Assembly (NCBI GenBank): GCA_040954595.2
Contig: CM082598.2
Location: 6,525,097-6,589,096 of the forward strand
DNA: 64,000 bases
Source of the DNA: Balanoglossus misakiensis
Taxonomy: Eukaryota; Animalia; Hemichordata
Reading direction: 5' to 3'
In this document: piece after piece, positions 23,931 to 53,780 of the stretch
How the letters are laid out: every line of letters starts with the position of its first letter
How positions within the stretch are numbered: the stretch's first letter is position 1
The notes under the pieces: generated by a model
Database searches by the model: none
Told to the model about the DNA's origin: nothing
The model's input: the letters and a program-made list of their open reading frames with translations, nothing else
Made by a program: the position numbers and the translations under genes

Positions 23931-26900
23931 ATGAGTTGATTCCGAAATTGTCTCCGCCATTTTGCCTTGTTTGTTGTCCAAACCCAAGTATGTCCTGGGC
24001 TGGTATAAATATGACACGACCGGTTCACGCCTGTTCGATCGAGTAGCCAAGGAGGACCCGGACTATCATATCTACCGAGCTGAGTCTGAAATCTTCCAAA
24101 ATAACAATGGTGAGTTGTCGTTTAACCTCAGGTTTGCGGAACGCTACATTTTCGCTGTCAAAATCGCGTCCCTCATCACTGAATGTGTTGAAACAGTTTT
24201 CTTATTTTCACAAATTTCCCTATTCGCCTTAAAGCCACAATATTTCTCGTTTTCGCATAAATTTTGTTTGAAACGGCATCTTCAATTTCTAAAAAAACAT
24301 GATAATTGATACTGAATCGAACAGTTATCGTGCCCAGCTCTGTTCATAAACACATACAATTTACAATATAACGAGTGAAGAATGACTTTCTGTCCGGACA
24401 GAAAGTCAGGCTCTGTTGACATACGGAATGCAACGTTAACAAACCCGCGCATCATTTCAAGTGTTACGGGCAATATTTACGGCTTGCATGTAGCTAAAGT
24501 TGCCCAAACCTTTCTTATATCATTATGTAGTATTGCATGATGAATGTACGGGAAAAACGGGCAATTTTCGATGATGAAAAATGGATAAACACGAGAAATA
24601 CTGGGGCTTTAATTCTAGACCACAGACAACCAAGTGGACATAAGTTATGGGGCTATTTTTAAAAAAAATGGCAAAATGTTGCCAAACTTGCCAAATACTA
24701 GTACACAGCTGGCGAGGGTGATTTGCTTTCTGGAAGGAGTTCTGCAACTGGTTTGTGTAGGTGTGCACATAATCAACTTGATCAACATATAAATAAGTTG
24801 ATAGTCCACAGATGCACTAATAGGCAATTTTCCTGACTCCTATTTGACCTTACTTCCTTGTTCTTTTGGTGGGACGGGGTTGTTAACATTCAACATTTTG
24901 GAACAAGTAACGTGCAAAATGTTGCTTGAAAAGGCGTCACTTTTGTAAGTTAACAGCTGCAATTATAGAGATTTTGTACAGAGAGGTTTTAGTCAACCTG
25001 ATGGATTCATACCAACCGGAAGTACGAGGATGTAAGGTCATGTAGGGGTCATGAAAATGGTCTTTTGTTCTACGCATTTTGTTCTTTGTCATTATTGATT
25101 CTGGCGAGTAATGCTATCAACTTGCTCTGTTTCAGACGATATTGCTTCGTGCGCAGGAGCGCCTACTCTTGTGGAACTGGGTGCAGGCAGCTCAACGAAG
25201 ATTTTGTACTTGATCAAAGCGCTGTTGGAAAAGTACGGGAGTTTGACATTCATTCCCATCGACATTGCAAAGGGTACGTGAGTCTGTTCTACCCCACAAT
25301 CCACTGTGTTTCCAAGATGGCGGCTCAGACAAACCTTCCCATATACTAATAAAGCTGGTCTTGCTGTGACCTGTGCACATTCATGACATTTTAACTTAAT
25401 AAGGCCAAATAAAAAAATATGTGCCGTCCCGATTACATAGTTTTCAAAAATAGGGTAGGTAGGTAGGGACAAATTTTTATTTTGCAATGTTTTATATCTT
25501 TGGCCGCCGAAGTGTAGAAGAATGTCGTCATAGTTCTTGCGTGATTCTCACAATTTTCATATATTTTGTATATTTGACTTCCGGTTTAAGAAGCTCTAAA
25601 ATGTTTAGGGTTGGCGGGCTAAAATTAGTGTAGGTCGGGTAATCGGAACAGCACATATTTTTTTATTTGACTAATCAGAAATCGACTTATTGCACCATTT
25701 TGTGGCATCTCGCCCACCGTTGATGGCGTATTACTGTGTATTTCTAAAACAAAATTTTCTGCGTGCCAATTACTTCAGATTTTATCGAAGAACATGCCCG
25801 CATTATGATGGACAAATTTGAAGGCCTCACCGTGGCCCCCTTTGGTGGTTTATATGTGGATGGCATACGCCACCTAAAGAATATTCCGGGGCAGAAACTC
25901 ATCATATTTATTGGGGCTAGTATCGGCAACATACCGATTGAGCAGATGGAGACCTTCTTGCTTGAAGTGAAAAGTGTGATGGGTAAGGCATTACATAGCA
26001 GTTAAAGGCCCGTATTTGTTGACGTGGACATTTCTATAGATACAAACAATAGATAAGTGTTTATTGAGAAACAATGGGCCAGATGTGTGTAGTATATGCC
26101 CCTTTAAACAATATCATCATTATTAAGCCGCTCGTCTCTGAAAGTTGGTGATATAGTTTCGGTGCTCTCGCCTCCAATCCTTTTTAGTTCTCTGCTGCTC
26201 CAACCTCTATATCATGTATGCAGATAACCAATTTCTGGTTTAATCACAGGGATCTATTCAGGGAATGTTTAGTAATAATTATATGATAGAAACTTAATAA
26301 CTTAGTTGTCTGTTAACTCTGAATCTTCTGTCTTTTTCTTAACGATACGATTCTAACCGGAACACTGAGGCTTCTCTGCACAGTATTATAAACAATGGAT
26401 GATAAAATGCGCCCTCTTTTGGTGAAGTGTTCCTACCGCCTGACCCCTCCAGCTGACCGCCTGCATGAAAACAAACTTATTCAGTTTCTATCACATAATT
26501 ATTACTAAACGTTCCCTGAATAAATCCCTGTGGTTTAATACTCCAATGTATAAGGTAATCTATGCAAATTTAGCTACAGTTACCATGGCAAACTGAGATC
26601 TAGCCAATCTAGCCAATCAAAAATTTTAAGTGGGTGGCACACGCGAAAAAGGGCGCCACCATACGTTCTTTAGAACACTCAGATACGCCATTTTTGCTAT
26701 TTATGGATATGTAAATTGTAGGTGGCCGTGTGCCTTTAAGTAAATAAATTGTTTGTGTGGTTGACGATTTACAGTGCAGTGGTTGTTCTAAATAACCTCG
26801 ACCCGTACGTGTAATACGTGTTGGGAGGAGTATTTACATTTTGCAGTGGTGTCGTGGTATTGAAAACGTATATCTTCCATTTAAAACGTGTTATTATGAT

Positions 26901-28297: not shown

Positions 28298-29496
28298 GAG
28301 ATGGTGTATACTGATATGATGTAACTCTGTACTAGAAATAAAGGGAACATACGAGTTCTCTATTATTTTGAACTTATATCTATACCTTTCTGTATCTTTT
28401 TATAGCATATAAAGAATTTATGAGACAGTTCATCATCGCAAAAATATGGATGTTACTTTGTATTACAATGTACACAGTACATCATTGCAAACAATATGGT
28501 TGATGCTTTGTATTACAATGTATATCATGGTAAACAACACGTCCTTACTTTTTATCATATATCTAAGTTACTGAAGGTAGGGCAATGGGCCTGGTATGAC
28601 AACGCCGTGCATTTTTCGTGCATACAGGCAACTTGGTTACAAGAAACCCTAATTAATAGCAACTGTTAACATTTTTAATGTTTATTGGCTCGGTTGAAAG
28701 TTGTATACTAATACATTACCTTCTCATCAATAGGCACGATGTAAATACTGGTAACTTATTATAGTGGGAGAAATTGGTCATTCAGATTATTTTACTCATA
28801 TAACAAGTATTTTGCCAACACGACAAAGTTTGGTAAATGTTTGAAGTTATATTTGGAGATCGTACGGTCATTGGAATTGGGTTACAATGGAGAGAGGGGA
28901 AAGGGGGGAGAGAGAGAGGGTGATGGATGGAAGGAGGGAGTGATGGAGCGAGGAAGGGGGAGGAAGTGAGACCATGTTGGGAGTTACCAGCACAAAGTAG
29001 ACAACAGTATGTTCGACAACACGTCGAAGGGATTTAAAACCACATTCCTCGGCGGAAACTGTGAAAGAAACAGATTTATGCAAACAATTGGGTTTTGGTA
29101 ATTACACAGGAGGCGCTCTGGTATGGGCGACTCGACGGTAATCACAAGGACACTAGCTACACGTCCCATCGACATACCAAGGCGGATCCCCAGCGCTGGT
29201 ATAAGAATAACTTCCTAAAAGGAATTACGTTAGCATAGAAAAGCAAGCTCTAGTACAAAACAAGGCACTTCTGTATGATTTACAACCGTTATTGTTCCTC
29301 GCTACATCCACCGCGTCAGCGCACAGGGGGGGGGGGGGCGCCCTCCGTGCTTTTATTGTGTGTGTGTGTGTGTGTTCGTTTGTTGTTATTGATTGGCATA
29401 ATAAACAAATAAATATTTATTAATAAATATGGTTTGTTTGTTGACATGTGAGGGTTAGGGTATATTTAACGGTTAGAGTGTCACGGTTGTCGCCTT

Positions 29497-30138
29497 TGTC
29501 ACGGTTGTCGCCGTTCATTCCAACATATTCACACCAAACAGGTTACGGGTAACAAAGACATAGGCCTTACATTTAATAACTGAAATGGAACAAATACATG
29601 TCAGTTCCAACGTGTGTGGCCGGTCTGGCTACAGAGGTGAACTGCTAAATTACACACATGTATGGGAGTTCACCTCCAACAGAATACACCAAAATTCATG
29701 CAAGTGAAAAATATAGACATACAATTGGAAAATTGACGCAAGTTAAAGACACCAATTACTTGTGCTGAAATGAGTCGGTAGAATGCACCAAAATACAAAG
29801 CTTCAAGCAACAGGTAAGGTACAAGGAAACTAACCTGAAATGGAACAAATACATGTCAGTTCCAACGTGTGTGGCCGGTCTGGCTACAGAGGTGAACTGA
29901 CCAATTTTATGCACCATGTCCTTTTATATCAGCAATTACATCATAGTGCCAGATTAGCTTGTGTTCATTGGTCAAATGAAACTTCCAGGTGGTTTGCATA
30001 TAATTAAGATCAACCAATTGAAGGTAAGTACTATTACGTCATATGAATAATTGAATAACTAATTACTATAAGATACAGGTATAACATACATACAGATATA
30101 CATGTATACAAATTCAATGGATCAACAAGGCCGTTACA
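29497..30138 (-). repeat. 3' LTR (642 bp)
   Basis: No difference from 36912-37553 seen by eye. A short purine tract GCAGGGGTGCG precedes it on the minus strand. Confidence 0.97.
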
Positions 30139-30197
30139 CGCACCCCTGCGAGGAGAAATGGCGTCCTCGTCATTTAAAGTAAGTTAAAGATATTTGA

Positions 30198-33100
30198 TTA
30201 ATAGTGGCAATTAATAAATGGTATAGAAGATAAAGTCGTATGAGCAAACTGTTTTAGATTCCATTGTTCGGGACTATATCTATCTGGAGGTCGTCTCTGT
30301 CGTGTAGGATAGCGTGGTTCAGGTTGAGTACTACTACTGGAGTCAGGACTGATGTTGGTTGTAGCAGGAGTGATACCATCTGGATCGCTCGATGACCAAC
30401 CATCCGTACTTTGCAAAATATGATTCGAGAAATCTGAGGTAAGTACTTGAGAAGGTCCATCCGGATTAACCATACTTGTGGGGTTGTCCATCAGGGAACT
30501 TTCTCTTCTGGATGGGATGAATTCTGCAGCAGTAGGATTAAGAGCATTGTGTTCTGTTGGCAAGTTGATAGTTGACACGAATTGCAATTTACCAATGCCG
30601 TCATCCTCTTCGTCCACGGCATCCTGGGTAGCATCGTTGATAACACCCGGTACACTCTGCTTAACATCACGCTGCGTCATCTTGGTGTTAACATCGTCAT
30701 CCAGTTCGTCCGGAATTATTGGTATTGGGAGTAGCAAATTTCTATGTAGTGTCCGCTTCCTTCCACCCTTAACTTGTTTTTGTACCACGTATACTGGAAT
30801 GTCTTCTATGGGCTGTGAAATCACTGTATATGGATCCTTTTCCCATTGGTCTGCCAATTTGTAATTGTCTTTAGGTCCTGTATTCTTCACCAACACAGTA
30901 TCACCAGGTTGTATTATGGCCACCTTCACTTTTCTATCATATGACTTCTTCTGCCGTTCACCAGACTTAACAGACCGTTCCGTTGCTACTTTATAGGCGT
31001 AATCCAACCGTTCGGCAAGTTTCGTCACATAATCTGAAACTGTTCCACCATATTCTAGGTTGGTCTGGTCTGCATGTCCAGATACATCTATAGGCAGTCT
31101 TGGTTCACGACCAAACATCAAAAAGAAAGGTGAATATCCGGTGCTTTCATGCTTTGTAGAATTATAGGCATGAGCCATCGTATTGACATGTGAAGCCCAT
31201 CTTGTTTTGTTGTCTTCATTCATAGTTCCAAGCATCTGTAATAACGTCTTATTAAATCGTTCGCACATTCCATTTCCCTGGGGGTGGTATGGAGTGGTCC
31301 TGGACTTCTTAATATTTGCTATTCGGCAAAGTTCCTGAATTGTAGACGACTCAAAGTTTCGCCCCTGGTCACTGTGTAATCGTCCTGGGAACCCATAATG
31401 CAAAATCAAATGTTCAAACAATGCTTTGGCAGTTGTTTTGGCAGACTGGTTCTTTGTAGGTACTGCTATAGCGTATCGAGTGAAATGGTCCGTCATCACT
31501 AATATGTTGCTATATCCTTGATCTGGTGTTGGTATATGGAGAAAGTCGATGCACACCATTTCCATCGGTTGTGATGTGTGAATATTAACCAAGGGAGTTC
31601 TGGGTAAGGAAGTTGAACTTTTCCTGCGAATGCATGGTAAACAATGTTCCACTTTCTTTTGAACATCCATCGACATCCTAGGCCAGTAGAATCTTCGTCG
31701 TACCAGATCCAGGGTTTTATCTTGGCCAAAGTGTCCAAGTTTATCATGTAGTTCCTCCAGGACATCTTTTCTATGGTGTACTGGTAAGACAAGTTGCAAA
31801 TATTGTATATCATCGATGAAGCATTTCCTGTATAGGACTCCATTCTTCAGAACAAGGCGTTTCCAATCTCGTATAAGTAGTCTGATATCTCCTGTATGAT
31901 CTCTCATAAGTGGTTTGTGGTCCTTTTCAAGCTGATCAGTCACATACCGTATTGTTGAATCTTTGGACTGCTCCGTCTTCCAGAACACATCATCCCCACC
32001 TTGAACTACTGCAGGTCTGTCCTCATCTGCTACCATTCCGAATGAAGTTACGTATGGACCTTCTGTTGCTCGACAAAGCGCCTGGACTACATCGGCTCCC
32101 AGATTGGTTTCCGTCTCTGGATTCTCTCTATTCCATGGAATCCTAGACAAAGCGTCAGCCTCTATATTCTTCTTACCACTCCGGTAAACAATAGAGAAGT
32201 CGTACAATGACAAGTCTGACAACCATCTGTGTCCCACCGCATCCAGTTTCGCAGAAGTTAACACATACGTCAAAGGGTTGTTGTCTGTAAACACAGTGAA
32301 TTTGCTTCCATACAGGTAGTCGTTGAACTTCTTGGTGACGGCCCATTTCAGTGCCAAAAATTCTAATTTATGAGCTGGATAATTACTTTCAGACTTGGTG
32401 AGTCCTCTACTTGCATAGGCAATTACTCTGAGAATACCTTTCTGGCGTTGATACAGCACTGCTCCCAGACCTGTGGAACTTGCATCAGTATGTATTTCAA
32501 ATGGAAGTGAGTAGTCAGCAAAGGCTAGTATTGGTGACGACATTAGGCTCTTCCTCAGAGTGTCGAAAGCTTGTTGTTCCTGTTGTCCCCACTGGAGTTT
32601 TTCAAATTTTCCCGCCTTATTCCTTGACTGACGTCCACACAGCAAGTCGTTAAGTGGCTTGGCAATATTACTGTAGCTTTGGATAAATCTCCTGTAATAC
32701 CCTGCAAATCCAAGAAATCTTCTCAGTTCTGTTACAGTAGTGGGTATTGGCCATTCCTTCAGAGCTGCTACCTTGTCTGGGTCCGTTGTAATTCCGTCGG
32801 CTGATACCACGTGTCCAAGATATTTCACCTTCTTCTGGAATAAAACACATTTCGTTGCCTTCAACTTTAATCCATGTGATGCCAGCCGCTGGAATACCCG
32901 CTCCAATCTATTGAGGTGGTCTTCAAAAGTCTTCGAAAATACTATGATGTCATCTAAATACACACAACATTCTCTGAACGCCAATTCTCCAAAACACTTC
33001 TCCATGAGACGCTGGAAAGTTGCAGGTGCGTTGGTCAGACCCATAGACATACGGTTGAATTCAAATAAGCCGAAGTTTCCCACCGTGAAAGCTGTCTTCG

Positions 33101-34457
33101 CTTTGTCGTCTTCCGCCATCTCTACTTGGTAATATCCAGACCGTAGATCAAGCGATGAAAACCACTCGGCGTTACTAAGGTTATCAAGCGTATCCAATAC
33201 CCGGGGTAATGCGTAAGCGTCTTTAATGGTTTTGGCGTTGAGACGTCTATAATCAATACACACCCTCAGCTTCCCATCAGGTTTTCTGACACATACAACA
33301 TTTGAGGACCACGGGCTGTTTGATTCTCTAATCACACCACTCTGTAGCATATCTTGCAGGTACTGTTGCAATTCTTCGTACATACCCATAGGGATTCGAC
33401 GGTATTTATCTTTAAAGGGGGTTTCATCCGTTAACTTTATCGAATGTGTTACCAATGTTGTGTGTCCCAAATCTCTCTCACCTGTAGAGAACACGGTTTG
33501 CCATTTACCAATGGTAGCCAAGGCTTGGTCTTTCTCGATTTCTGTTAATTCTGTATCTGCCTCTTGTAATCCCAGGTCTTTTATCAGCCAATCGGGTACT
33601 TTTGGTGAGGTGGTCCCATCTGAGTTTGTATCAATATCATCTCCATATGGATCTAAAGGCTGTGAGACATTAGATGCCAAGTTCATGTTACATAGGGTGC
33701 TTTTAGGGGGAACTGTGACAGCACGTGCTCCATAGTTGGTCACCATTACTGGGATTCGACACGAATTACCACGAGGCTCTAACTTCAACACGGCTGGAGT
33801 AACAAGTAAACCACCAGGTAAAAGTCTGTCATTTTCTGGTTCCACCACAACTACTGATTGACAATTTCTTAGGTCCACTCTGCAAAATCCATGGATGACT
33901 GTGCGTTCGTATGGTCCAATGGTTGTGGGTTTAGTAGTGGTAACTGTAAATGTCCTACCTTCGGCCCTCTGCCGGTGGATAGTCGCTTGGTATGCTAGTC
34001 TCCATACTGAGGATAGGTCTGTACTGTACTGTGTATCTTCATCCACAAAATGTTGGAGAACATTTGTGCCTATCACAACTGGAACCATCTGATTATATTC
34101 CGTGTCTTCAACAACAAGCAATAATATATCTTTAGACATCTCTTGTCCATGGCTATCTGGGAATTTCACTTCAACTTCAATATAACCAAGGTAAGGAACT
34201 TCTGTACCACTAGCCCCTTCTACCTTCACCAAGTTGTTCAGGTCATGAATTGGTTTCTGTAGCTTCTCTCTGTTAAAAGTGTCAGCAACAGTAGATACCA
34301 TGGACCCGGTGTCTATCAGCGCAATACACGAGGATCCTTCCAACACAATCTCAGTTTCATTGGCGTGGCCTATTAAAGAATCAATAACATTAGAGGGACT
34401 GTTACCGTTCCGACCTAGCGCATGTCCCTCCGGATGCCTGGTCGCTCCCCATTTAAA
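30198..34457 (-). CDS. pol: Pol (protease, RT, RNase H, integrase), expressed by -1 frameshift from gag
   Basis: LIDTGS, YLDDII, TDAS...ELE-like KLEFLAL, HHCC zinc finger, DFL...SDQG...ER. The -1 frame is open from the TTTAAAT heptamer at 34457-34451. Confidence 0.95.
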   Translation of the reverse strand, partial: FKWGATRHPEGHALGRNGNSPSNVIDSLIGHANETEIVLEGSSCIALIDTGSMVSTVADTFNREKLQKPIHDLNNLVKVEGASGTEVPYLGYIEVEVKFPDSHGQEMSKDILLLVVEDTEYNQMVPVVIGTNVLQHFVDEDTQYSTDLSSVWRLAYQATIHRQRAEGRTFTVTTTKPTTIGPYERTVIHGFCRVDLRNCQSVVVVEPENDRLLPGGLLVTPAVLKLEPRGNSCRIPVMVTNYGARAVTVPPKSTLCNMNLASNVSQPLDPYGDDIDTNSDGTTSPKVPDWLIKDLGLQEADTELTEIEKDQALATIGKWQTVFSTGERDLGHTTLVTHSIKLTDETPFKDKYRRIPMGMYEELQQYLQDMLQSGVIRESNSPWSSNVVCVRKPDGKLRVCIDYRRLNAKTIKDAYALPRVLDTLDNLSNAEWFSSLDLRSGYYQVEMAEDDKAKTAFTVGNFGLFEFNRMSMGLTNAPATFQRLMEKCFGELAFRECCVYLDDIIVFSKTFEDHLNRLERVFQRLASHGLKLKATKCVLFQKKVKYLGHVVSADGITTDPDKVAALKEWPIPTTVTELRRFLGFAGYYRRFIQSYSNIAKPLNDLLCGRQSRNKAGKFEKLQWGQQEQQAFDTLRKSLMSSPILAFADYSLPFEIHTDASSTGLGAVLYQRQKGILRVIAYASRGLTKSESNYPAHKLEFLALKWAVTKKFNDYLYGSKFTVFTDNNPLTYVLTSAKLDAVGHRWLSDLSLYDFSIVYRSGKKNIEADALSRIPWNRENPETETNLGADVVQALCRATEGPYVTSFGMVADEDRPAVVQGGDDVFWKTEQSKDSTIRYVTDQLEKDHKPLMRDHTGDIRLLIRDWKRLVLKNGVLYRKCFIDDIQYLQLVLPVHHRKDVLEELHDKLGHFGQDKTLDLVRRRFYWPRMSMDVQKKVEHCLPCIRRKSSTSLPRTPLVNIHTSQPMEMVCIDFLHIPTPDQGYSNILVMTDHFTRYAIAVPTKNQSAKTTAKALFEHLILHYGFPGRLHSDQGRNFESSTIQELCRIANIKKSRTTPYHPQGNGMCERFNKTLLQMLGTMNEDNKTRWASHVNTMAHAYNSTKHESTGYSPFFLMFGREPRLPIDVSGHADQTNLEYGGTVSDYVTKLAERLDYAYKVATERSVKSGERQKKSYDRKVKVAIIQPGDTVLVKNTGPKDNYKLADQWEKDPYTVISQPIEDIPVYVVQKQVKGGRKRTLHRNLLLPIPIIPDELDDDVNTKMTQRDVKQSVPGVINDATQDAVDEEDDGIGKLQFVSTINLPTEHNALNPTAAEFIPSRRESSLMDNPTSMVNPDGPSQVLTSDFSNHILQSTDGWSSSDPDGITPATTNISPDSSSSTQPEPRYPTRQRRPPDRYSPEQWNLKQFAHTTLSSIPFINCHY

Positions 34458-35839
34458 GGACAGTCTGTCTTTTTGTGTCCATGTTCACCACACTTGAAGC
34501 AGTTGCCTGGGAAAACTTGTTTGGGTTGGCGAGTTCCATCGTTGCCACGCCGATCCCGGCCATTTTCATTGTTGACACGTCGGCGAAAAGTAGACTCTGG
34601 AGTTGATGATGTTGAAGTTCGCTTCTCTAGTTCAGCAACCTTCTCAGCTAAGTTCTTCAGACCTTTGGTAAGTTCCTCCAATTTGGTTATCATCGTCTTG
34701 TCAGCAACAGTTGCTTGGTGAACCCTGGTAGTGGTCTCCCTATTTACTTCAAGCTTTCTTGCGGCTAGCAACAATCCTGAATAATCTTCTCCCGTATCAT
34801 ATCGGTGTCTGATTGCATTCTTAATGTGCTCATCTGACAGGCCAGAAAAGAATTTGGTTCGAAGCATGGTTTCTTCTGAATTACTAGAGATGGACTGACC
34901 TGATCTGAGTTCATCCAAAAGTCCTTCGATGCGACAGGCCCATTCTGCTACCTTTTCTGTCTTCGTTTGTCGTGCTGTATAGAATTTTTCCAAAACTGCT
35001 TCCGGTGGCAATACTTTCCCAAAGACCATGTCCATCTTCGCCATCAATCGGGACACTGTGATGTCTTCTCCCATATGTAGTAGGACTTCAGCAGCGGACG
35101 CTCGTAGGGATTTCCGAACAGCCTGCATAATTATGGTCTCCGGAAACACATTCTCCCTCTGTAGTGCTCGAACTTCATATCGCCACATTTCATAAGTGAC
35201 ATCACCTTTGCCAGAGAAGACGACTATTCTTGGGAATTCCACCGAGTGAAAAGCAGTAGTGGCTGTGGCTGGCTGTGCAGCAGCTGCTTGGGCAGGTGAA
35301 GACATAATAAATGGTGAAGAATCTGCAACTGAAGTTGGTACTGGAAATGCTGGAAATGGAATCGGATGTGGCATAGGGGTTGATACGATTGGTTTCAGTG
35401 GAGCAGGTGATATGGCCTGTGCAACCGCTTTCCTATCTGCTTCAGACAGTAAACTCAACATGTTAATAATTTCCTGTACATCTGCTTTGGGTTTGGATGT
35501 CTTGGGATCACTGGTTTCATTGTAATCTAGGCCAGTACTTTGTTCGGTTTCCTCAATTAAATGCCACAGTTCCAACCCTCGGGCTGTGGTCACAAGACTT
35601 GCCCGTAATTTGCTTTCTTCAAAAGTGCTTTTATGTATTACTGGCAGAGCGGCTGTGGCTGATTCTATATTCTCAAATATGACAAAAGCGGAATCTTTAT
35701 CAGAAATATAAATTTGATCAACCTGGGCCAAACCAAGCTGTAACTCGATAAATTCACTAACATTTTTCTTTGTACATTCAAAAGGCAAGTGTTGCACATA
35801 AATGCTTCGCTCTTGAATTGATATTTTGGACACAGCCAT
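34415..35839 (-). CDS. gag: Gag (N-terminal RRM-like domain, PNMA-like capsid, coiled coil, CCHC knuckle)
   Basis: ATG at 35839. SIYVQHLP and SAFVIFE are RNP2/RNP1-like, FSGKGDVTYEMWRYEV is capsid-like, and CFKCGEHGHKKTDC is a zinc knuckle. Confidence 0.92.
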   Translation of the reverse strand: MAVSKISIQERSIYVQHLPFECTKKNVSEFIELQLGLAQVDQIYISDKDSAFVIFENIESATAALPVIHKSTFEESKLRASLVTTARGLELWHLIEETEQSTGLDYNETSDPKTSKPKADVQEIINMLSLLSEADRKAVAQAISPAPLKPIVSTPMPHPIPFPAFPVPTSVADSSPFIMSSPAQAAAAQPATATTAFHSVEFPRIVVFSGKGDVTYEMWRYEVRALQRENVFPETIIMQAVRKSLRASAAEVLLHMGEDITVSRLMAKMDMVFGKVLPPEAVLEKFYTARQTKTEKVAEWACRIEGLLDELRSGQSISSNSEETMLRTKFFSGLSDEHIKNAIRHRYDTGEDYSGLLLAARKLEVNRETTTRVHQATVADKTMITKLEELTKGLKNLAEKVAELEKRTSTSSTPESTFRRRVNNENGRDRRGNDGTRQPKQVFPGNCFKCGEHGHKKTDCPLNGERPGIRRDMR

Positions 35840-36890
35840 TCTTTTCCCCAGAAAATGAAAGGCAATTTGGGAGGATTCTGACGTGTCGTTAAATACGATG
35901 CAATGCAAGCTATTTCACTGGAAAATCTTAACAATAATATCAGTATCTACTGGCATAGCACATACGTTAACAGGGAATGGACTAAGCATAGAATAGTTTA
36001 CAGACACTGCCAAAGGTTCTATAGAGACTAATGTATGATTTGGATGAATACGACCATTCATGGACAGTCTCAATAATAATGAAACAACTAAATAACTAAT
36101 ACAATAATAAACTAACTCAAGTCAATATACAATATTTAACTTATAACTTAATATTTTTTTTTCAACAAGTGCTGACAATTTTTTTTTTCACGTCGTTTGG
36201 AAAATAATGAACTGAAATTTACAAAGAAAATTTATACTTCAGCACTTAACCAAAATATACTGTTGAAAGAAAATAATTTTTTTTTTTTTTTAAAGCAGGC
36301 TAAAGGCAACAAAACATGGGTTTATATCCACATGGAGCCCACTTCAACAATTAAATCAAAGTCAAAACTACTTTGACCACATTGCATTATATAGACAATA
36401 TTGAAATTTCTAAGAAAAATTTACAAACATTACGTTACACCAGGTTCTACGGCGAATAACCAGAAAGTTCGTTTGCAATAAAATACCCAGTCCACAAGTT
36501 CAAGTCCGAAGTTATCACAGATGGAAACTATGCGCCACGGACGGAATTTATGCGCACTGTCTCTAGTTTGCACGGAATAACACTGTCAAGTTCTGGACAC
36601 ACAATACCTTGTATACCGCGATGAACACTTCACACTAAACAGTTCCGGCCGGTAACAGTTCAGCGACTTCACCACTTGGCACTCTGCAGAGAATTTTCCT
36701 CGCCGTTGACGCTTGGACCTGGCTCCCGTCTGTCTGCAGTCCGGGTGGCTCCCCAAGGACGTCCAGCTCAGCGAAAGACACACCTGGTTGGGCGTTGTCC
36801 GTTGTCCAGACACTTCTGACCAGTTAAAACATGGCACTTGTCAGTATCATCCTCTCCGTCCCGAAAAAAGAACTTGCGTAGGAATTGCCA

Positions 36891-36909
36891 AATCCTGCCG
36901 ACTACGCCA
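36891..36909 (-). promoter_or_regulatory. Primer-binding site for tRNA-Ser
   Basis: TGGCGTAGTCGGCAGGATT is complementary to the animal tRNA-Ser(AGA/TGA-type) 3' end AATCCTGCCGACTACGCCA. Confidence 0.9.
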
Positions 36910-36994
36910 TTTGTCACGGTTGTCGCCGTTCATTCCAACATATTCACACCAAACAGGTTACGGGTAACAAAGACATAGGCCTTACATTTAATAA

Positions 36995-37249
36995 CTGAAA
37001 TGGAACAAATACATGTCAGTTCCAACGTGTGTGGCCGGTCTGGCTACAGAGGTGAACTGCTAAATTACACACATGTATGGGAGTTCACCTCCAACAGAAT
37101 ACACCAAAATTCATGCAAGTGAAAAATATAGACATACAATTGGAAAATTGACGCAAGTTAAAGACACCAATTACTTGTGCTGAAATGAGTCGGTAGAATG
37201 CACCAAAATACAAAGCTTCAAGCAACAGGTAAGGTACAAGGAAACTAAC
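36995..37249 (-). other. Predicted 255-nt spliceosomal intron in the LTR R region (also 29580-29834)
   Basis: Donor CAG|GTTAGT, branch point CTGAC about 20 nt before TTCCATTTCAG|, and ATTAAA 2 nt after the acceptor. Confidence 0.7.
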
Positions 37250-37309
37250 CTGAAATGGAACAAATACATGTCAGTTCCAACGTGTGTGGCCGGTCTGGCT
37301 ACAGAGGTG

Positions 37310-37343
37310 AACTGACCAATTTTATGCACCATGTCCTTTTATA
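37310..37343 (-). promoter_or_regulatory. LTR core promoter: TATA box plus initiator
   Basis: TATAAAA (37343-37337) lies 30 nt upstream of the A in TCAGTT (37313). Confidence 0.8.
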
Positions 37344-37992
37344 TCAGCAATTACATCATAGTGCCAGATTAGCTTGTGTTCATTGGTCAAATGAAACTTC
37401 CAGGTGGTTTGCATATAATTAAGATCAACCAATTGAAGGTAAGTACTATTACGTCATATGAATAATTGAATAACTAATTACTATAAGATACAGGTATAAC
37501 ATACATACAGATATACATGTATACAAATTCAATGGATCAACAAGGCCGTTACAAGAGTATTAAGTGTTCGCATTTTTTTCAATCCACGGCACTCCCAAGC
37601 CACAAGAAGAGACAAGGGTGGCAACATTTCCGGGTCTCCAGCACTGTATTTTCAAGTCCAGAATAACACAACAAATAAATGTCTGACAATTGAATTATTA
37701 CGTTTGCAGTAACAACATACTCTATACTTACTATATCTACTCTGTAATTCAATGAAAAGGTATAAATCGGCGATATGTTGTTTGGTGGCGCTGTTGATCG
37801 GCTGCCTTTTAGCTCTCTCCAAATTATTGTGATTTTTATTGCTTATTTCGCGTTTTGCTGTGCTGAATTTTTACCATCGGATGTGTAAAGACTCCTGGTA
37901 GCGACTGCTGATTTTACTCCGTCCATTTCGCATTCTGTTGGCTATATTTTTTCGGCTATTTCTTGCTGTGACTGTGGTACATTTCCGGCAAC

Positions 37993-40900
37993 ATGGCATC
38001 GAAGCTTTGGACATCCATTGTGCGGACACCTGCAGCTCGAATTGTGTATTCCACCAATCAGACTCATCAATGGTTTAGACCACGTGGAAGAAAGGCTGGA
38101 CGGAAACATCCCAAACCAAGGTGCCAAATTCCAACTATTGTTAGCCATCATCGCAAACAAAGGCCGGCCGGGTATACATGTATTCAGACACAGGTGCTAC
38201 GGCAGATTCCAACCTCCCATCATGCGGATACAAAGACAGAATATTACATTCAAACTGGTATAGCTATATCTACAGTGCTAAATGTCTTTCAGCGTCAATG
38301 TATGTATCGTCCACGCTTTATCAATGTGTTAAATCGTATTACCCTGCGCAGAGAATCAACATCTTTGCAAGCTCGCACCGTTAACTTTACGTTATGGAAT
38401 GCCCGATCCATAAGTACCAAGGTACAATCTGGTTCTGATTCCATCATTCAGAATAAGACCGACATATTTGCTGTAACTGAAACATGGTTAAAAGAATCGG
38501 ACAATAACATCTCAGCGCATTTATCATCAACTCTGAGTGGTTACAGAATATTCCAGGTATCGCGTGCGAAACAACGTGGTGGAGGGATAGCTGTTATATT
38601 CAGATCCAACCTGAAATTCATCTCAAACAAGACACACTCATTCAGTTGTTCGCCTTCTAGTCATCTATAGACCACAAAAGGGAACTGTCAGTGACTTTCT
38701 ACGTGAATTTTCCACCCTCTTGGAGAGTGTGATTTGTTCTCAAGGGCGACTAGTAATTGTTGGTGATTTTAACATTCACTTCGACGATAGTACGAATAAT
38801 GACAACATTAAGTTTGTAGATTTACTCAACACAATGGGACCACGGGCGTCATGGAACAATAAAGTGTATGGATAATTTAGCATAGGCCTAAACGAACACA
38901 CAATAAATTATTTCGTGTTTTTTTATGTGAACGAGAACTACACTCACGAACGGCCTAGCAAAATATGCGAGCGGAACGCGGAAGTGATCGAGCAATCTAC
39001 AACCGCACGAGCGCACGCGCCCGGCCCAGCGCGCGCGGCAGACGATCGTACGACTCCGCTCCGTTGCTAGCCAGGACAGACGCGTTCGTATACAGGGCAG
39101 ATCAGTTGCGGGCGCGCACGCATGCTCAATACGAGATCGTATACACACGGTGCCTATCCCCTATAGAGGTACGCGTACGGTGTGGTTTTGCACATAAAGT
39201 TAACACTGACCTAGCTTTAGTGCATTTCTCGTCCGCACCAAACAAACCTATGAAATATTTTATTCTTTGTTCATTGTGGACGTCGCGTTTATGCTAAGTT
39301 TATTAATATCTATACACTTTATTGTTCCATGACGCCGGTGATGGGACTTGCACAACATGTAATTGGACCGACGCATACAAAAGGCCACACATTGGATTTA
39401 ATTATCACTCGCGCAGCTGATCCATGTGTAAACGAAACCAGATGTGATTGGCTCTTGCTATCTGACCATGCTGCCATTCACTTTTCAACTGTTTTCATGC
39501 GACCACGTCCACTGAGAACTCTCCAATCATCGAGAAAGCTTACTAACATCGACATCAGTGATCTTCAGCAGAAAATTGCATCATCTCCATTGCCAAGTCT
39601 CTCGGAAATTGACGGGTGCCCTTCTCTTCTTGTGAGTACGTATAATGAAGCCCTGACTACAGTTATTGATGCCATTGCACCTGTTGTCACGAAATATGTT
39701 TTGGACAAAGTGCGTTCACCGTGGTTTACAGAAGATTTACTGAAGTTGCGACAAAAGCTCCGTCAGTTAGAAAGGCAGTGGGTGAAGACAGGCCTGGTTG
39801 TACATGAAGAAATGTTTAAATCCGCTAGAAACCAGTATACAGCCAGATTACGTGATGCACATTCATCCTATCATCGTAGCTGTATTGTGTGTGCTGATAC
39901 CAAGAAGTTGTTTCGTATAATTGATGAGATCGCAGGTACTAAGGGCGCGTTGGCATCAGCCACACCGGACATGGACTCAAACAAATTACCGGACACCTTC
40001 GCAGATTTCTTCCTTTCTAAGATCAAGAAGATCCGTGAGACTTTGGTATCTGTTCCACCTTGTGATTTTCCTAAAGACTATAAGCTTTGATCTCAGTGCT
40101 TTCAAAACAGTTTCAATTGATTTTGTTGAAAAGCTCATTGGTTTGCTCCCCACCAAATCCTCATATCATGATCCCATACCAACATCATTGCTAAAACAGT
40201 GTGTTCATCAAGTATCTCCAGCAATTACCGGTATCATCAATTCTTCACTGAAGTCTGGTGTATTTCCCAGCCCATGTAAATCGGCGATTGTACGCCCATT
40301 ACTAAAGAAGTCAACCCTTGATAAAAATGTGTTGAAAAATTATGGACCGGTGTCGAATTTAACTTATATCTCTAAGTTGATTGAGAAGTCAGTTTTATTT
40401 CAACTTAATTCGCATCTGTGCAGTAACAACTTGTACGCTAAATGTCAGTCTGCTTATCGACAAGGTCACAGTACTGAGACTGCGCTCATTCGAGTCCAAA
40501 ACGATGTGCTTCGGGCTCTAGATCGCCGGGATGATGTTATTTTAATTCTTCTTGATTTGTCAGCCGCCTTCGATACCATCGACCACAACATCTTGATTCA
40601 TAGAATATGTCATAGGTTTGGTATCCAGGGTACCGTTCTCAACTGGATTACTTCATATTTACAAGGCAAAACAATGAGAGTACGTATTGGGTCGGTGATG
40701 TCGGAGGCACAACCACTTGATTGCGGCGCTCCCCAGGGCTAGGTCTTGGGACCAGTTTTATTTAGTTTGTATACAACACCGCTTGAGGACATTATAGATA
40801 AACACGGTCTACAAAGTATGTTTTATGCTGATGACTCTCAGTTGTATATTGTTTGCTCTCGTGATTGTGTCCCGAGTAAAATTATTGAGAACTGTATAAG

Positions 40901-43445: not shown

Positions 43446-43565
43446 GGTTTTTCTTGTCCGAATTCTTTTGAAACCTTCAGCCAATTTCCTCAGGTATAAG
43501 TAACTCGAATTTCAGTTCAATGCACTTGAAAAACTGTGTTGAGTTTCAGAGAAAAATAAAAATTA

Positions 43566-43857
43566 CGTGCAGTATAATTATGGTTATTCTTCTTACCTGG
43601 AGTGAGTGGAGTGAATTGAAATAGCTGAATTCCCTTGACCTCCGGGTGAACGTAGCCTTTTAAAGTCGACCTATGACCTATAACCTGAATAAATTAAAGT
43701 ATACATGCAATGCACTCTGGGAAATCCCCTCATGGAAGCCATCTTTGAAAGCAGGATAACAAACAAATAAATTAACACAATGAGGGGGAGGGAGGGAGCT
43801 ATTTCAATTCACTCCACTCACTCCAGGTAGGAAGAATAACCATAATTATACTGCACG
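43566..43857. mobile_element. Miniature inverted-repeat derivative of the DIRS-like element
   Basis: Inverted repeats of about 57 bp (CGTGCAGTATAATTATGGTTATTCTTC.TACCTGGAGTGAGTGGAGTGAATTGAAATA). The same motif is at 47980-48040, next to the DIRS recombinase. Confidence 0.7.
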
Positions 43858-44589
43858 GAAGTATGGCAAGCCTCAGGGGTCTTAAGTATAGCAATAGTAG
43901 TATATAATGTTGAAGTAGTACGATTATATTTTGATTCGTTAATATATTATAAATAAACTTGACTCTATTAATGGTAACACTGTGTATATTATGAAAAGCT
44001 ACAAGTTTATTATAAGTGGACATTATTATTTTATTCTAAAAGCTTATCCATTAATTAACTTACAATAAAATATTATTTACAAACATTATTAATATAATTA
44101 CATTCATCTCTATATTATTTAAACATGGTATTATATTATTTAATTGTATTTACAAATTATAATTTTGTTTGATAGTATGATTGCCATCTTGAAGATGTAT
44201 GTTTTTAAAATAATTATTTGATTTTTAAATACGAGAAAATGGTTGGTACATCACATCAATTTATTTTAACTTTTATTTTTGTTATTTATTAAAATGGTGA
44301 AATGAATATAAACACAAATTTTTATATTTTAAGTGACTATGCTTTTATGTTAATTCTGTAGTCTGTTAGATGATCATTGAATAGCTTATGTTTTCCATGC
44401 ATTATATATAGAGGGCGTGTGTTTAAGCTATTCAAAGACTCTAAGATTTTAAGACACTTTGCAAGTATTGATATTATTTACTTGTTTACTACCTTCACTT
44501 CCACCTCACTAGAGGGCGCACAATTTTTGCTGTCGGCCATTTTCCGTGTTTTCCGTTTGTTTTGCGCGTCTCAGTCGCAGTCGGAAGAG

Positions 44590-47544: not shown

Positions 47545-47657
47545 GAGATCGTCATATTAAATATAAGGCTTACAGCAAGTTTATCTCTTTCTAAAACTTT
47601 TTTGTTTACCCATGGAGATAAACTCGCTGTAAGCCTTATATTTAATATGACGATCTC
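47545..47657. repeat. Hairpin (arms of about 44 bp)
   Basis: GAGATCGTCATATTAAATATAAGGCTTACAGC.AGTTTATCTC and its reverse complement. Confidence 0.9.
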
Positions 47658-50164: not shown

Positions 50165-53100
50165 ATGCAGAGAGAAAAGCTGACAGGAACAAAACACCTG
50201 CTTCTCGGCTCAATGCCCAAACTGACTCCATACAAGAAAGTGATATCCTTTATTCAAAGCCTAGATATCGGTGACTTAATTCCAGTTGTAGTTGAAGGCA
50301 TAGTCGTTGGTCTTAAGCGCCCCCTGATTTCCATGCTTCTAAAATTAACAGAGTTATATTTGAAAATGGAGGAAAATAAGCCATGTGACCAGTGTTGGTT
50401 TGGGAAACCCAATTGTTTTCAAATCGCTTTGGGGTCAGATGGAACTCCCTTTGGAAAGCATAATCAGGCCACAAGCTGGTTAATAAGCTTTCTCAATGTT
50501 ACACACAAGCTTGCTAGTCCAGATCATAACTTTTTACTACTTGGTACTCTTTACTGACATCTCTGAGTTCAGTGTCGAAGATAAGAGTGATTCTGATCAT
50601 TTTCCTCTGGCGTGTACCATAAATATTAAACGGTTTTGCCGTCATGTAAGAAATACAAAATCAAAAGTCATTGATGTTGATTTGCATAAATATTCTTATT
50701 TCAAATGGGACAAAGAAAAACTTGGTAATTTCAATACTTATATTGCTTCTAAGGAAGGTGAAGAGCGTGTAAAGCGGGTTCTTGAATGGGATAGACAAAA
50801 TGTAAATGAGTTGATAAATGGAGTTTATGATTTGTTATATTGGGCTGCCACCGATTACCAGAAGATGACCATCAAAACATTTACAGGAGACAAAACCAGA
50901 TCATCGCAGCCAAAATGGTTCAATAAAGACTGTGAAACTGCTAAGAAAAAAATGTACAAAGCACTTAGAAATTTCAGAGCATCAAATGACATGAATAGTC
51001 TGAGTATATACAAAGAACAGAAATCAAACTTTAAAACAATATGTAGAGTAAACAAAGAAAGCTTTAAAAGCTCCATCTGTAGAAATGTTGGGTCACAGGG
51101 ACAAAATATCTGGCAACATGTTAAGCGTTTTATGGGAGGTATGAAATCTTTTTCAAATATTTCCTCTAGTGACTGGATAAATCATTTTAAAACCCTCCAT
51201 AACCCAAAATGGCATAGAACAAGGTTTGATATTACTGTGGAAGAGTTTTTAGAAAACTTTGCCCCTTCCCCGGAAGATTTAAATAGCGATGCTGAAGAGA
51301 TTCTAAATAGTCATATTACAACTCATGAAATCGTCTGTGCACTGAATAAGTTAAAAGCTGGTAAATCCCCGGGTCCGGATGGTATCCCAAATGAATTTTA
51401 TCGAAATGCAAAACAAAGTCTAATCACGGTACTTGATTTCACGTTCAATGCCATTTTTGACTCTGGTGTTTTTCCAAGCGAGTGGAATAAGGGAATAATT
51501 GTACCACTTCATAAGAAGGGTAGTTTACATGACCCAAACAATTTCAGAGGCATCACTTTATTGAATTGTCTAAGCAAGATTTTTACTTTTATACTAAATC
51601 AGAGACTTGTAAAATGGGCTGAAATGCAAGGTTGTATCACTGAATGTCAAGCTGGTTTCAGACGTGATTTTAGCGCTGTTGATAATATCTTTGTTCTTCA
51701 CATTATGGTACAGAAATATCTTTCTAGATCAAAAGGTCGTTTCTATTGTTTGTTTGTAGATTTCAGTAAAGCTTTTGATTCAGTAAATCACAATCTCTTG
51801 TTATATAGACTTTGTCTAGAGGGTGTCATGGGCAAAATGTATAATATTCTTAAATCCATTTATAAAGAAGTTAAATCTTGTGTCAAGAGTCGAAATGGAG
51901 TAACCGATTTCTTTAATTGCTCTGTCGGAGTTCGACAAGGGTGTATGTTGAGTCCTTTTCTTTTTTCTCTGTTCATCAATGAATTAAATAATATGTTAGT
52001 AAATTCGGGTAATCATGGTATTCAAATCACTCAAGAACTTTACGACCTTTTTGCACTTCTTTATGCTGATGATGTTACAATTTTTAGTGATACGCCAGTT
52101 GGGCTACAAAGACTGATTAGAGTACTGGAATGTTTCTGTCATAAATGGAAACTATCTGTAAATATGGAAAAGTCACAAATAATTGTTTTTCGTAGAGGGG
52201 GTGTTTTAAAGAAATGTGAAAAATGGTTTTATAATAGAGAACAACTAAAAACTGTCAGTTACTACAAATATTTAGGTTTAATAATTTCAAGTAGAAACAT
52301 CTGGAGTAAAGCTGTTACCGTACTCTCAGACCAAGCCAGAAAAGCTATGGGCGCTATTTTCCGTATGATTAAAAACAGTGGCACTTTATCTTTTAAAGAC
52401 TATTTTAAACTTTTTGATTCCATGATTTTGCCAGTCTTAACATATGGATCTGAAATATGGGGATATCAGAGATATCAAGTTGCTGAAAGAGTACAACTGA
52501 AATATTGTAAAGCCTTTATGGGCGTTAAATCAACTACACCAGATGCTTGCATTCTAGGAGATTGTGGAAGACATCCAATATTTATTCACACTTTTAAGAA
52601 AGTTATTTTATACTGGTTCAAGTTATTAAAAATGCCCACAAACAGAGTAGCCAAACATGCCTACAAATTATCGGTGACACTGGACAAAAATGGGAAAAAA
52701 TCATGGGCAACAAATGTAAAATGTCTTCTGTATGAACACGGTTTTGGAGATGTATGGCTATGGCAAGGCCCAGGGGATTTTGATCTTTTTCTTCTCAATT
52801 TTATGACAAGAGCAAGTGATATTTTCAAACAAAACTGGTTCTCAGACACCTGTAGTAAGAGTAAACTTCGTTTGTACTGTAACTTTAAAACATCATTTCA
52901 TACAGAGAACTACTTAAAATTGAATATTGTTTTCAAACTAAGGAGTGCCCTCGCTCGTCTCAGAACTTGTGGTTTTGATTTGGCAGTTGAGGAGGGGAGG
53001 GCACAGGGAATCGACTTTGAAGATAGAATTTGCAGAGTATGTGGGTCTACTGAGATCGAGGACGAATATCACTTTATTTGTATCTGTCCTTTATACCAGA

Positions 53101-53780
53101 CTTTAAGAAGCATGTATTTACCGAGATGGTCATATACAATTCCAACACCCGAAAAATATTACTCACTCATGGCTTCAGATAATAACAAAGAAATACGAAA
53201 TCTGGCCTTATTTGTTCACAAAGCAATCAGTTTGAGAAAAGAATGTTTGTAATTTTTATCTCTTTTCTCTTTTTGTACTCTCTGTAAAATTCTGTGTGTA
53301 TAAATATAAGTTTGCAATATGGGCTGGAGGCCTAAAAGAGCAATAAAGCATTATTATATATACTACTTGGGGCAAACCTTAAAGAAGATGATGAGTACAC
53401 GAGAAATTATGCTGAGAGTATGAGCTCTGAATTACAAGCCATTGTTACAGAGAAACATGACGTATTCCAGCATGTGGTGTCATTCAAAGTTTCCCTTCTA
53501 CCATTCGACATGAAAAGATTGGCATTTGTTTCAAGGGAGCTTAGCAATGCCGTAAAGTATTTCTCCTCTTTTGCCAATGTTTCAACAGCAAACATGAATA
53601 CACCGAATGCCTCAGTGGGTCTAAGTAGTAAATGGCAGAAATGGGATTATAGCAAACGATTTATTGATGCAGCAGCTGTCAGCAAAATGAAGAATACTCA
53701 AAACAAATCTATCAACAGCTAGGACAAAAATCACAGACTCAATAGCAAAATGACAAAGTAGACACGAATTTGGGTTCGTT
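50165..53780 (+). pseudogene. DDE transposase relic with RAG1/Transib/Chapaev-like core, split by the RTE-X LINE
   Basis: IALGSDGTPFGK...ASPDHNFLLLG joins in frame to ANLKEDDE...FKVSLLPFDMKRLAFVSRELSNAVKYFSSFANV once the LINE and one TSD are removed. Confidence 0.6.
50545..53360 (+). mobile_element. 5'-truncated RTE-X-like LINE with uninterrupted RT ORF (to 53252)
   Basis: TSD TACTACTTGG (50535-44 and 53361-70). KSPGPDGI, QAGFR, FVDFSKAFD, GVRQGC, YADD, C-terminal CRVC...EDEYHFICICPLY. AATAAA followed by an (ATT/AT) tail. Confidence 0.9.

Follow-up and report, generated by a model that had tools for sequence, protein, structure and literature searches.

Copies of a predicted first exon at the 3' end of a predicted LTR intron in a hemichordate Ty3/Gypsy retrotransposon and its distant relatives

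Results

An intact Ty3/Gypsy element

The window, i.e. the whole stretch of 64,000 nucleotides of Balanoglossus misakiensis DNA that was analysed, contains on its minus strand an intact Ty3/Gypsy retrotransposon, which hosts the layout reported here in both of its LTRs. The element has the following parts.

36912..37553, minus strand: 5' LTR, 642 nt, TGTAACGG...CCGTGACA; matches the 3' LTR exactly
36892..36909, minus strand: primer binding site, an 18-nt TGG site separated from the 5' LTR by an AA linker
34415..35839, minus strand: gag, with a weak RRM, a PNMA-type capsid and a CCHC knuckle
30198..34484, minus strand: pol, uninterrupted over 1428 codons and in a different frame from gag, which it overlaps; with RT, RNase H and integrase
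30139..30150, minus strand: short purine-rich stretch preceding the 3' LTR, a weak PPT
29497..30138, minus strand: 3' LTR, with blocks at 29899-29835 and 29644-29580
29479..29496, minus strand: AA plus a second copy of the last 16 nt of the LTR, between the 3' LTR and the target-site duplication
29475..29478, minus strand: target-site duplication CTCT; partner copy at 37557-37554

The two LTRs are identical at 642 of 642 nucleotides. Assignment to Ty3/Gypsy is based on these direct repeats with TG...CA ends, on the CTCT target-site duplication, which is offset by the 18-nt extra piece on the 3' side, and on the order RT-RNase H-integrase of the pol domains (Pfam) downstream of gag, which is the Gypsy order. 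The primer binding site is a candidate match to tRNA-Ser; no tRNA genes were found within the window. The extra 18 nt beyond the 3' LTR (29496-29479) look like an RT slip at the copy of the primer site, because the 5' LTR, too, is followed by AA and GGCG (AA TGGCG).

Among named Gag proteins, the nearest comes from Ptychodera flava (63% over 62% of the query). With Metaviridae that have a PNMA-type Gag the element shares the PNMA-type capsid, the CCHC knuckle and the domain order of pol. One report (PMC3670739, available part) places PNMA genes under the Barthez lineage; what links the window element to that lineage is the PNMA domain alone, the RT tree described below having been built from our loci with no named reference elements. 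The N-terminal RRM of Gag (35839-35600, E 0.0003) barely passes the Pfam cut-off. An RRM is unusual in Gag, and is of interest alongside an RNA that would depend on splicing. The 1-kb leader is very AT-rich between 36450 and 35918 (GC 0.21-0.34), with runs of A and of T, and this stretch ends in TTTTCCAG about 80 nt upstream of the gag ATG. It is possible that the leader holds a second intron serving the gag mRNA, with candidate donors at 36786, at 36610 or in the LTR.

Elsewhere, the window carries a GC-rich tandem array (55852 to about 60300; 70-nt unit, about 60 copies, 95-99%) and, on the plus strand, other RT-related frames, presumably LINE-like: a 921-codon RT at 50487-53252, an RT fragment at 39921-40742 and a zf-RVT fragment at 1209-1736. 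Short elements with long inverted ends at 43563-43860 (64 nt), 26239-26538 (72 nt) and 47545-47657 (43 nt) may be MITE-like or hairpins.

A duplicated block at the borders of a predicted intron

Each LTR contains two copies of a 65-nt block. Features in the 5' LTR are, in the direction of transcription:

37337..37343, minus strand: TATAAAA, predicted TATA box, beginning 29 nt upstream of block 1
37310..37315, minus strand: TCAGTT, initiator-like; predicted TSS at 37314-37313
37250..37314, minus strand: block 1, predicted exon 1 (65 nt), defined by its identity to block 2
37244..37249, minus strand: predicted splice donor CAG/GTTAGT (the slash marks the junction), 8 of 9 matches to the U1 consensus
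36995..37249, minus strand: predicted 255-nt intron, made up of a 190-nt unique spacer and block 2
37060, minus strand: G directly before block 2 (T precedes block 1), candidate trace of a copied cap
36995..37059, minus strand: block 2, containing CTGAC (37019-37015), a pyrimidine tract and CAG; site on which the first strand transfer is predicted to land
36987..36992, minus strand: ATTAAA, predicted poly(A) signal, 2 nt past the acceptor

Block 1 (37314-37250) and block 2 (37059-36995) are identical at 65 of 65 positions and are spaced by 190 nt. The block occurs four times in the window, always within the two LTRs. The duplication is not due to chance, because BLAST gives the pair an E value of 2e-28 and the same geometry is found in relatives with unrelated sequence (see below). 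A preliminary description of this DNA, which had read the arrangement as an intron that restores itself, thus gave the two blocks correctly for both LTRs; the sequence likewise confirms its positions for TATAAAA, TCAGTT, GTTAGT, CTGAC, ATTAAA and the pyrimidine tract, and its figure of 387 nt for an LTR deprived of the intron is right, given LTRs of 642 nt.

Both blocks end in CAG, and block 1 is then followed by the donor. The features expected of a U2-type intron are present, i.e. a GT donor matching U1, a pyrimidine tract and a YAG acceptor. CTGAC is located at -25 relative to the acceptor; among the twelve elements compared below, a YTRAY motif lies 15-50 nt before the acceptor in four. 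TCAGTT was called initiator-like by its resemblance to the initiator consensus, and the identity between the blocks begins on TC, one base ahead of the expected A. The 190-nt spacer itself starts with GT and ends with AG (TAATTTAG), a rival acceptor that abuts block 2 and is completed by the G at 37060. The TSS, the splicing and the poly(A) site of the window LTR are predictions. A search of 35800-37700 against Rfam gave a single match, located outside the LTR and far below the gathering score (E 0.34); the idea that the block is a known structured RNA (spliced leader, snRNA or ribozyme) was dropped, there being no Rfam match over the block.

The exon-copy layout in distant relatives

Relatives were collected with an alignment of six Pol proteins, which yielded 102 loci, 80 from metagenomes and 22 from bacterial genome bins; no relatives of the window element were found in the viral contigs searched. 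The 22 Gypsy pol loci L081-L102 stand in records titled bacterial MAGs, 12 of them within one record set, and are probably animal DNA binned with symbionts. Thirty-seven loci were examinable, i.e. chosen by hand because they included either a complete LTR or no less than about 450 nt of sequence from the LTR side; the other 65, with too little or no recognisable LTR, were left unscored.

The exon-copy layout was found in 12 of the 37 examinable LTR regions, and 25 were without it. Eleven of the positives have a repeat anchored at AG/GT (L002, L004, L006, L012, L022, L027, L068, L071, L082, L083 and L085) and form, with the window element, the set of twelve used in the comparisons; their RT regions are 51-65% identical to that of the window element. 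In the twelfth positive, L019, the LTR is split over contig ends and the repeat is at least 90 nt long at 100% identity. Most positives are flanked by LTR context, either an upstream purine tract and TG, or a downstream CA end and primer site, or both. Nine of the eleven relatives have repeats of 61-104 nt at 96-100% identity, seven of them at 100% (L083, 96%; L027, 99%), and two have repeats of 23-26 nt. The predicted introns in relatives measure 153-531 nt. Two further loci were not scored as positive: L054 (67-nt repeat, 97%, AG/GT after both copies) and L020 (an end resembling block 1 only).

It had been predicted in the preliminary description that the borders of the repeat in related elements would coincide with splice sites. 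An exact repeat of at least 20 nt was present in 12 relatives, and in 11 of these 12 it ended at AG/GT or within 2 nt of it, the background of AG/GT in these LTR regions being 31 sites in 8657 positions. The sole miss was L096, with a 51-nt repeat that is not at splice sites. All twelve elements of the comparison have donors with 7-8 of 9 matches to the U1 consensus, and in all twelve AG closes block 2. The blocks also behaved as expected under the proposed co-variation, being identical or nearly so within an element and mostly unalignable between elements: BLAST between blocks of different elements gave one weak match in 66 pairs, and the blocks of the sister elements L006 and L022, each identical to its own copy, aligned with a score of 0.61 versus 0.53 after shuffling.

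On a quick RT tree (92 rows; 11 loci omitted for short RT), the trait is clustered yet scattered. It requires 7 changes, compared to 10.2 for shuffles, of which 9 in 500 were as low, and three of the changes are forced by well-supported branches. L018, the sister of L027 on this tree, has a 420-nt LTR without the spacer and may, weakly, represent a form that lost the intron; its LTR barely aligns with that of L027.

A plain LTR intron as a property of the 25 relatives without the copy was considered and rejected: such introns were predicted in 13 of 25 in the sense direction, in 4 in antisense and in 10 with reversed sequence, i.e. not above control. A looser scan for donors (32 vs 21 of 32) was uninformative. 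Four of the regions without an exon copy (L028:7060-7695, L048:6213-7110, L066:2200-3246 and L011:4817-5800) have a strong donor and acceptor, with a poly(A) hexamer 13-34 nt downstream of the acceptor. Such regions could be ancestral or derived; taken over all regions, the scan did not exceed its reversed control.

Candidate signatures of an RNA template

The twelve elements were inspected for signs that one copy of the block had been made from RNA. Identity begins on YR, an initiator-like start as foreseen in the preliminary description, in 8 of 12 elements (3.0 expected, P 0.003), and a G precedes copy 2 in 7 of the 11 decidable ones (2.8 expected, P 0.008). AATAAA or ATTAAA occurs between -45 and +8 of the acceptor in 7 of 12 elements (0.9 expected), 27-42 nt upstream of it in five and 2-5 nt downstream in two; in five of the twelve there is no canonical hexamer near the acceptor. 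In 5 of 12 elements AATAAA is found within the block itself, and in L019 it stands a few bases past the acceptor. Because the YR, G and hexamer tests were chosen post hoc and the elements are related to one another, these P values err on the optimistic side.

The m7G cap can template a C for RT of the MMLV type (PMC6885630, available part); a cDNA run to the cap would therefore leave a G before copy 2. The hexamer beside the acceptor predicts that the RNA 3' end would lie near the end of block 2, which would make block 2 the partner of R. In the window, ATTAAA is located downstream of the acceptor, and thus cleavage would not remove the AG.

Copies in DNA reads and a second subfamily

The DNA runs X1, X2 and X5 are from one sample, possibly the source of the window; depths were taken from X1 contigs. 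Contig depth was 3280 for U3, 2986.5 for the spacer and 1374-1473 for the internal region. As the spacer is about twice as deep as the internal region, there are two spacers per element, and intronless LTRs amount to at most about 9% by contig depth. The abundance of intronless LTRs was assessed by depth and not by joints, because the block exceeds the assembly word. A genome holding mainly 387-bp LTRs had been named beforehand as evidence against the self-restoring intron, and these depths do not show one.

A second subfamily was assembled at depths of 1418 and 1369 (about 1400), half of the window type. It differs from the window by 20 letters and 3 gaps along the spacer contig; along the block-1 contig the differences are 14 letters and 3 gaps. 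Certain changes relative to the window (at 37278, at 37279 and an insertion near 37270) are common to both of its blocks, which shows co-variation again. The two blocks nevertheless appear to be non-identical, because contigs of this subfamily run through both blocks, where contigs of the window type break, and because a change at 37299 is listed for just one of its contigs. The unequal blocks mean that recopying is not obligatory, or that this subfamily multiplied in another way. In the original proposal the intron was regenerated in each cycle; in that form this part lacks support, in view of the abundant sister subfamily and of L083 (96%) and L027 (99%). The comparative predictions of the proposal are borne out.

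Predicted folding of the donor

In the window, the donor was predicted to be fully paired only when U3 was included (0.01 unpaired vs 0.27; none of 12 shuffles was as low). The fold predicted in the presence of U3 is a hairpin (37281-37240) in which the donor is paired with the CTGAC stretch of block 1. The predicted U3-dependent switch was seen in the window element, in L022, in L071 and weakly in L083, and was absent in 9 of 13 elements; a switch of the foamy virus type was accordingly rejected as a general feature.

Discussion

A proposed model for the restoration of the intron

The arrangement is a genuine and conserved way of building an LTR, seen in elements of a known kind, and a mechanism for it has to be read from signatures in the DNA. 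The best explanation, which we regard as probable, is that strong-stop cDNA made from spliced RNA lands on block 2 and thereby restores the intron. R-mediated first strand transfer is an established step, and the model would add splicing to it as follows. Transcription would start at block 1, with the TSS at the start of the block. Splicing near the cap would then remove the intron, from the donor through to the last nucleotide of block 2, and give an RNA of the structure cap-block-U5-primer site. The 3' copy would mostly escape splicing, because cleavage and polyadenylation would take place at the acceptor or very close to it, so that the 3' end of the RNA would keep the spacer and block 2. 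The first cDNA, consisting of U5 and exon 1 and often of an additional cap-derived base, would anneal to block 2, and its extension would recopy the spacer, block 1 and U3. In the new LTR, the 3' LTR would be the source of block 1 and exon 1 that of block 2, i.e. block 1 would overwrite block 2, and this is why the exon would end in acceptor signals.

Unspliced templates would have both blocks copied separately and let them drift, and a spliced 3' end would yield an intronless LTR; on these two grounds the system is likely to be leaky. Several observations speak against the model: the 25 examinable relatives that lack the exon copy, the 7 changes that the trait requires on the tree, the apparently unequal blocks of the second subfamily, the 5 of 12 elements with no canonical hexamer near the acceptor, the position of the window hexamer past the acceptor and the start of the window identity on TC. 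The likely gain for the element is a spliced transcript for export and translation, together with control over the choice of the poly(A) site: by analogy with foamy viruses, a donor beside a poly(A) signal may silence it at the 5' end.

Other explanations

The donor might instead serve mainly as a U1 site controlling poly(A) choice, in which case packaged RNA would normally be unspliced and block 2 would be a by-product of a rare spliced template. Foamy viruses provide a precedent (PMC3694450, available part), and the AATAAA inside the block in 5 of 12 elements, the apparently unequal blocks of the sister subfamily and the window donor predicted to be paired only in the presence of U3 all agree with it. 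However, the fold switch is not general, 9 of 12 relatives having no such lean, rare events would not hold 61-104 nt at 100% identity in 7 of the 9 relatives with long repeats, and the 3' border would still require splicing. We therefore judge this explanation unlikely.

Could the blocks be kept alike without any splicing, by RT template switching or by gene conversion between direct repeats? RT is known to switch templates between direct repeats, and such switching tends to delete the spacer. The repeats of the Drosophila element TART have been proposed to be recopied by a template jump (PMC1636488, available part). Yet the expected loss of the spacer is at odds with its depth of about twice the internal region, and the AG/GT borders (11 of 12), the U1-type donors (12 of 12) and the G before copy 2 are left unexplained, which makes switching or conversion very unlikely.

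If the acceptor were the AG just before block 2, a 190-nt intron would be removed and the blocks would be left in tandem. The spacer does start with GT and end with TAATTTAG, but an AG is found there in only 3 of 12 elements (window, L006 and L012), as opposed to 12 of 12 at the end of block 2, and the copy of the block would go unexplained; in the strand-transfer model the rival AG would be accounted for by the same candidate cap-derived G before block 2. We consider this acceptor highly improbable. Equally improbable is a plain recent duplication that coincides by chance with splice-like motifs, or an origin of the intron by segmental duplication, for although a working intron can arise by duplication (PMC3265369, available part), the spacer is unique rather than a tandem copy, only 65 of the 255 intron nucleotides are duplicated with no second spacer copy within the LTR, and recurrence in 12 relatives with mostly unalignable blocks contradicts it.

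Comparison with known systems

No exon-copy intron in an LTR was found in the literature searched, a scope that left most subscription papers and Repbase outside. The comparisons below refer to the available portions of the cited sources. Closest in location are the LTRs of maize, which hold spliced introns, according to the authors the first such evidence (bioRxiv 10.64898/2026.05.08.723830). These are canonical introns within the LTR itself, as here; in contrast, they are long (mean 1303 bp) and belong to LTR-contained non-coding RNAs, and the available text of the preprint mentions no exon copy, strand-transfer model or intron-keeping route (10.64898/2026.05.08.723830). Of the reads contained in the 3' LTR, 69.2% were spliced (10.64898/2026.05.08.723830), which counts against a 3' copy that escapes splicing, although these reads begin inside that LTR.

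Penelope-like elements have a short intron 46 bp past the TSS inside the terminal repeat, and this leader intron is needed for expression after transcription (PMC2377424). They differ in being non-LTR elements whose pseudo-LTRs arise by tandem insertion; the portion available states no obvious mechanism of regeneration and mentions no exon copy (PMC2377424). In the foamy virus LTR a splice donor lies upstream of the poly(A) signal and the two ends are handled differently, but this is achieved by U1 binding and an RNA fold switch, and not by a whole LTR intron with a duplicated exon (PMC3694450). TART resembles the window element in that its 5' sequence is repeated near the 3' end, with the recopying by RT template jump referred to above, whereas it is a non-LTR element with introns on the antisense strand and with repeat borders not tied to splice sites (PMC1636488). 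In split-intron retroviral vectors the duplication of the LTR during reverse transcription installs a splice site; these are engineered, act for a single round and block further mobility, whereas the window layout would renew itself (PMC3182074). The TART jump, the split-intron vectors and the introns born by duplication each have one feature only in common with the present case.

Implications

The classic demonstration that a retroelement moves through RNA is the loss of its introns, on which most reporter assays also rely. An LTR able to retain an intron, its own spliced exon being copied onto the end of that intron, would be a general exception to this rule. The removal of introns by retrotransposition was demonstrated with the marked-intron test in Ty, and few internal introns are known, those in Ogre and EVADE (PMC12786077, available part).

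On balance we lean towards the view that the window element represents a hitherto undescribed build of LTR, in which R is a spliced first exon with its landing site at the 3' end of an intron and the cap leaves a G at the junction, and which is common to many Gypsy lineages of marine animals, having been gained or lost repeatedly. Were this so, host splicing and poly(A) choice would join the reverse-transcription cycle, with an intron rebuilt from its own spliced product, and there would be a natural route to intron ends made by RT. The way in which U3, R and U5 are drawn and annotated would change, and the repeat borders would read out the TSS and the splice sites from DNA alone. It would also suggest how the two ends of an element come to be processed differently although their LTRs are identical, would explain the persistence of the introns recently seen in LTRs, and may suggest a vector design that retains a leader intron.
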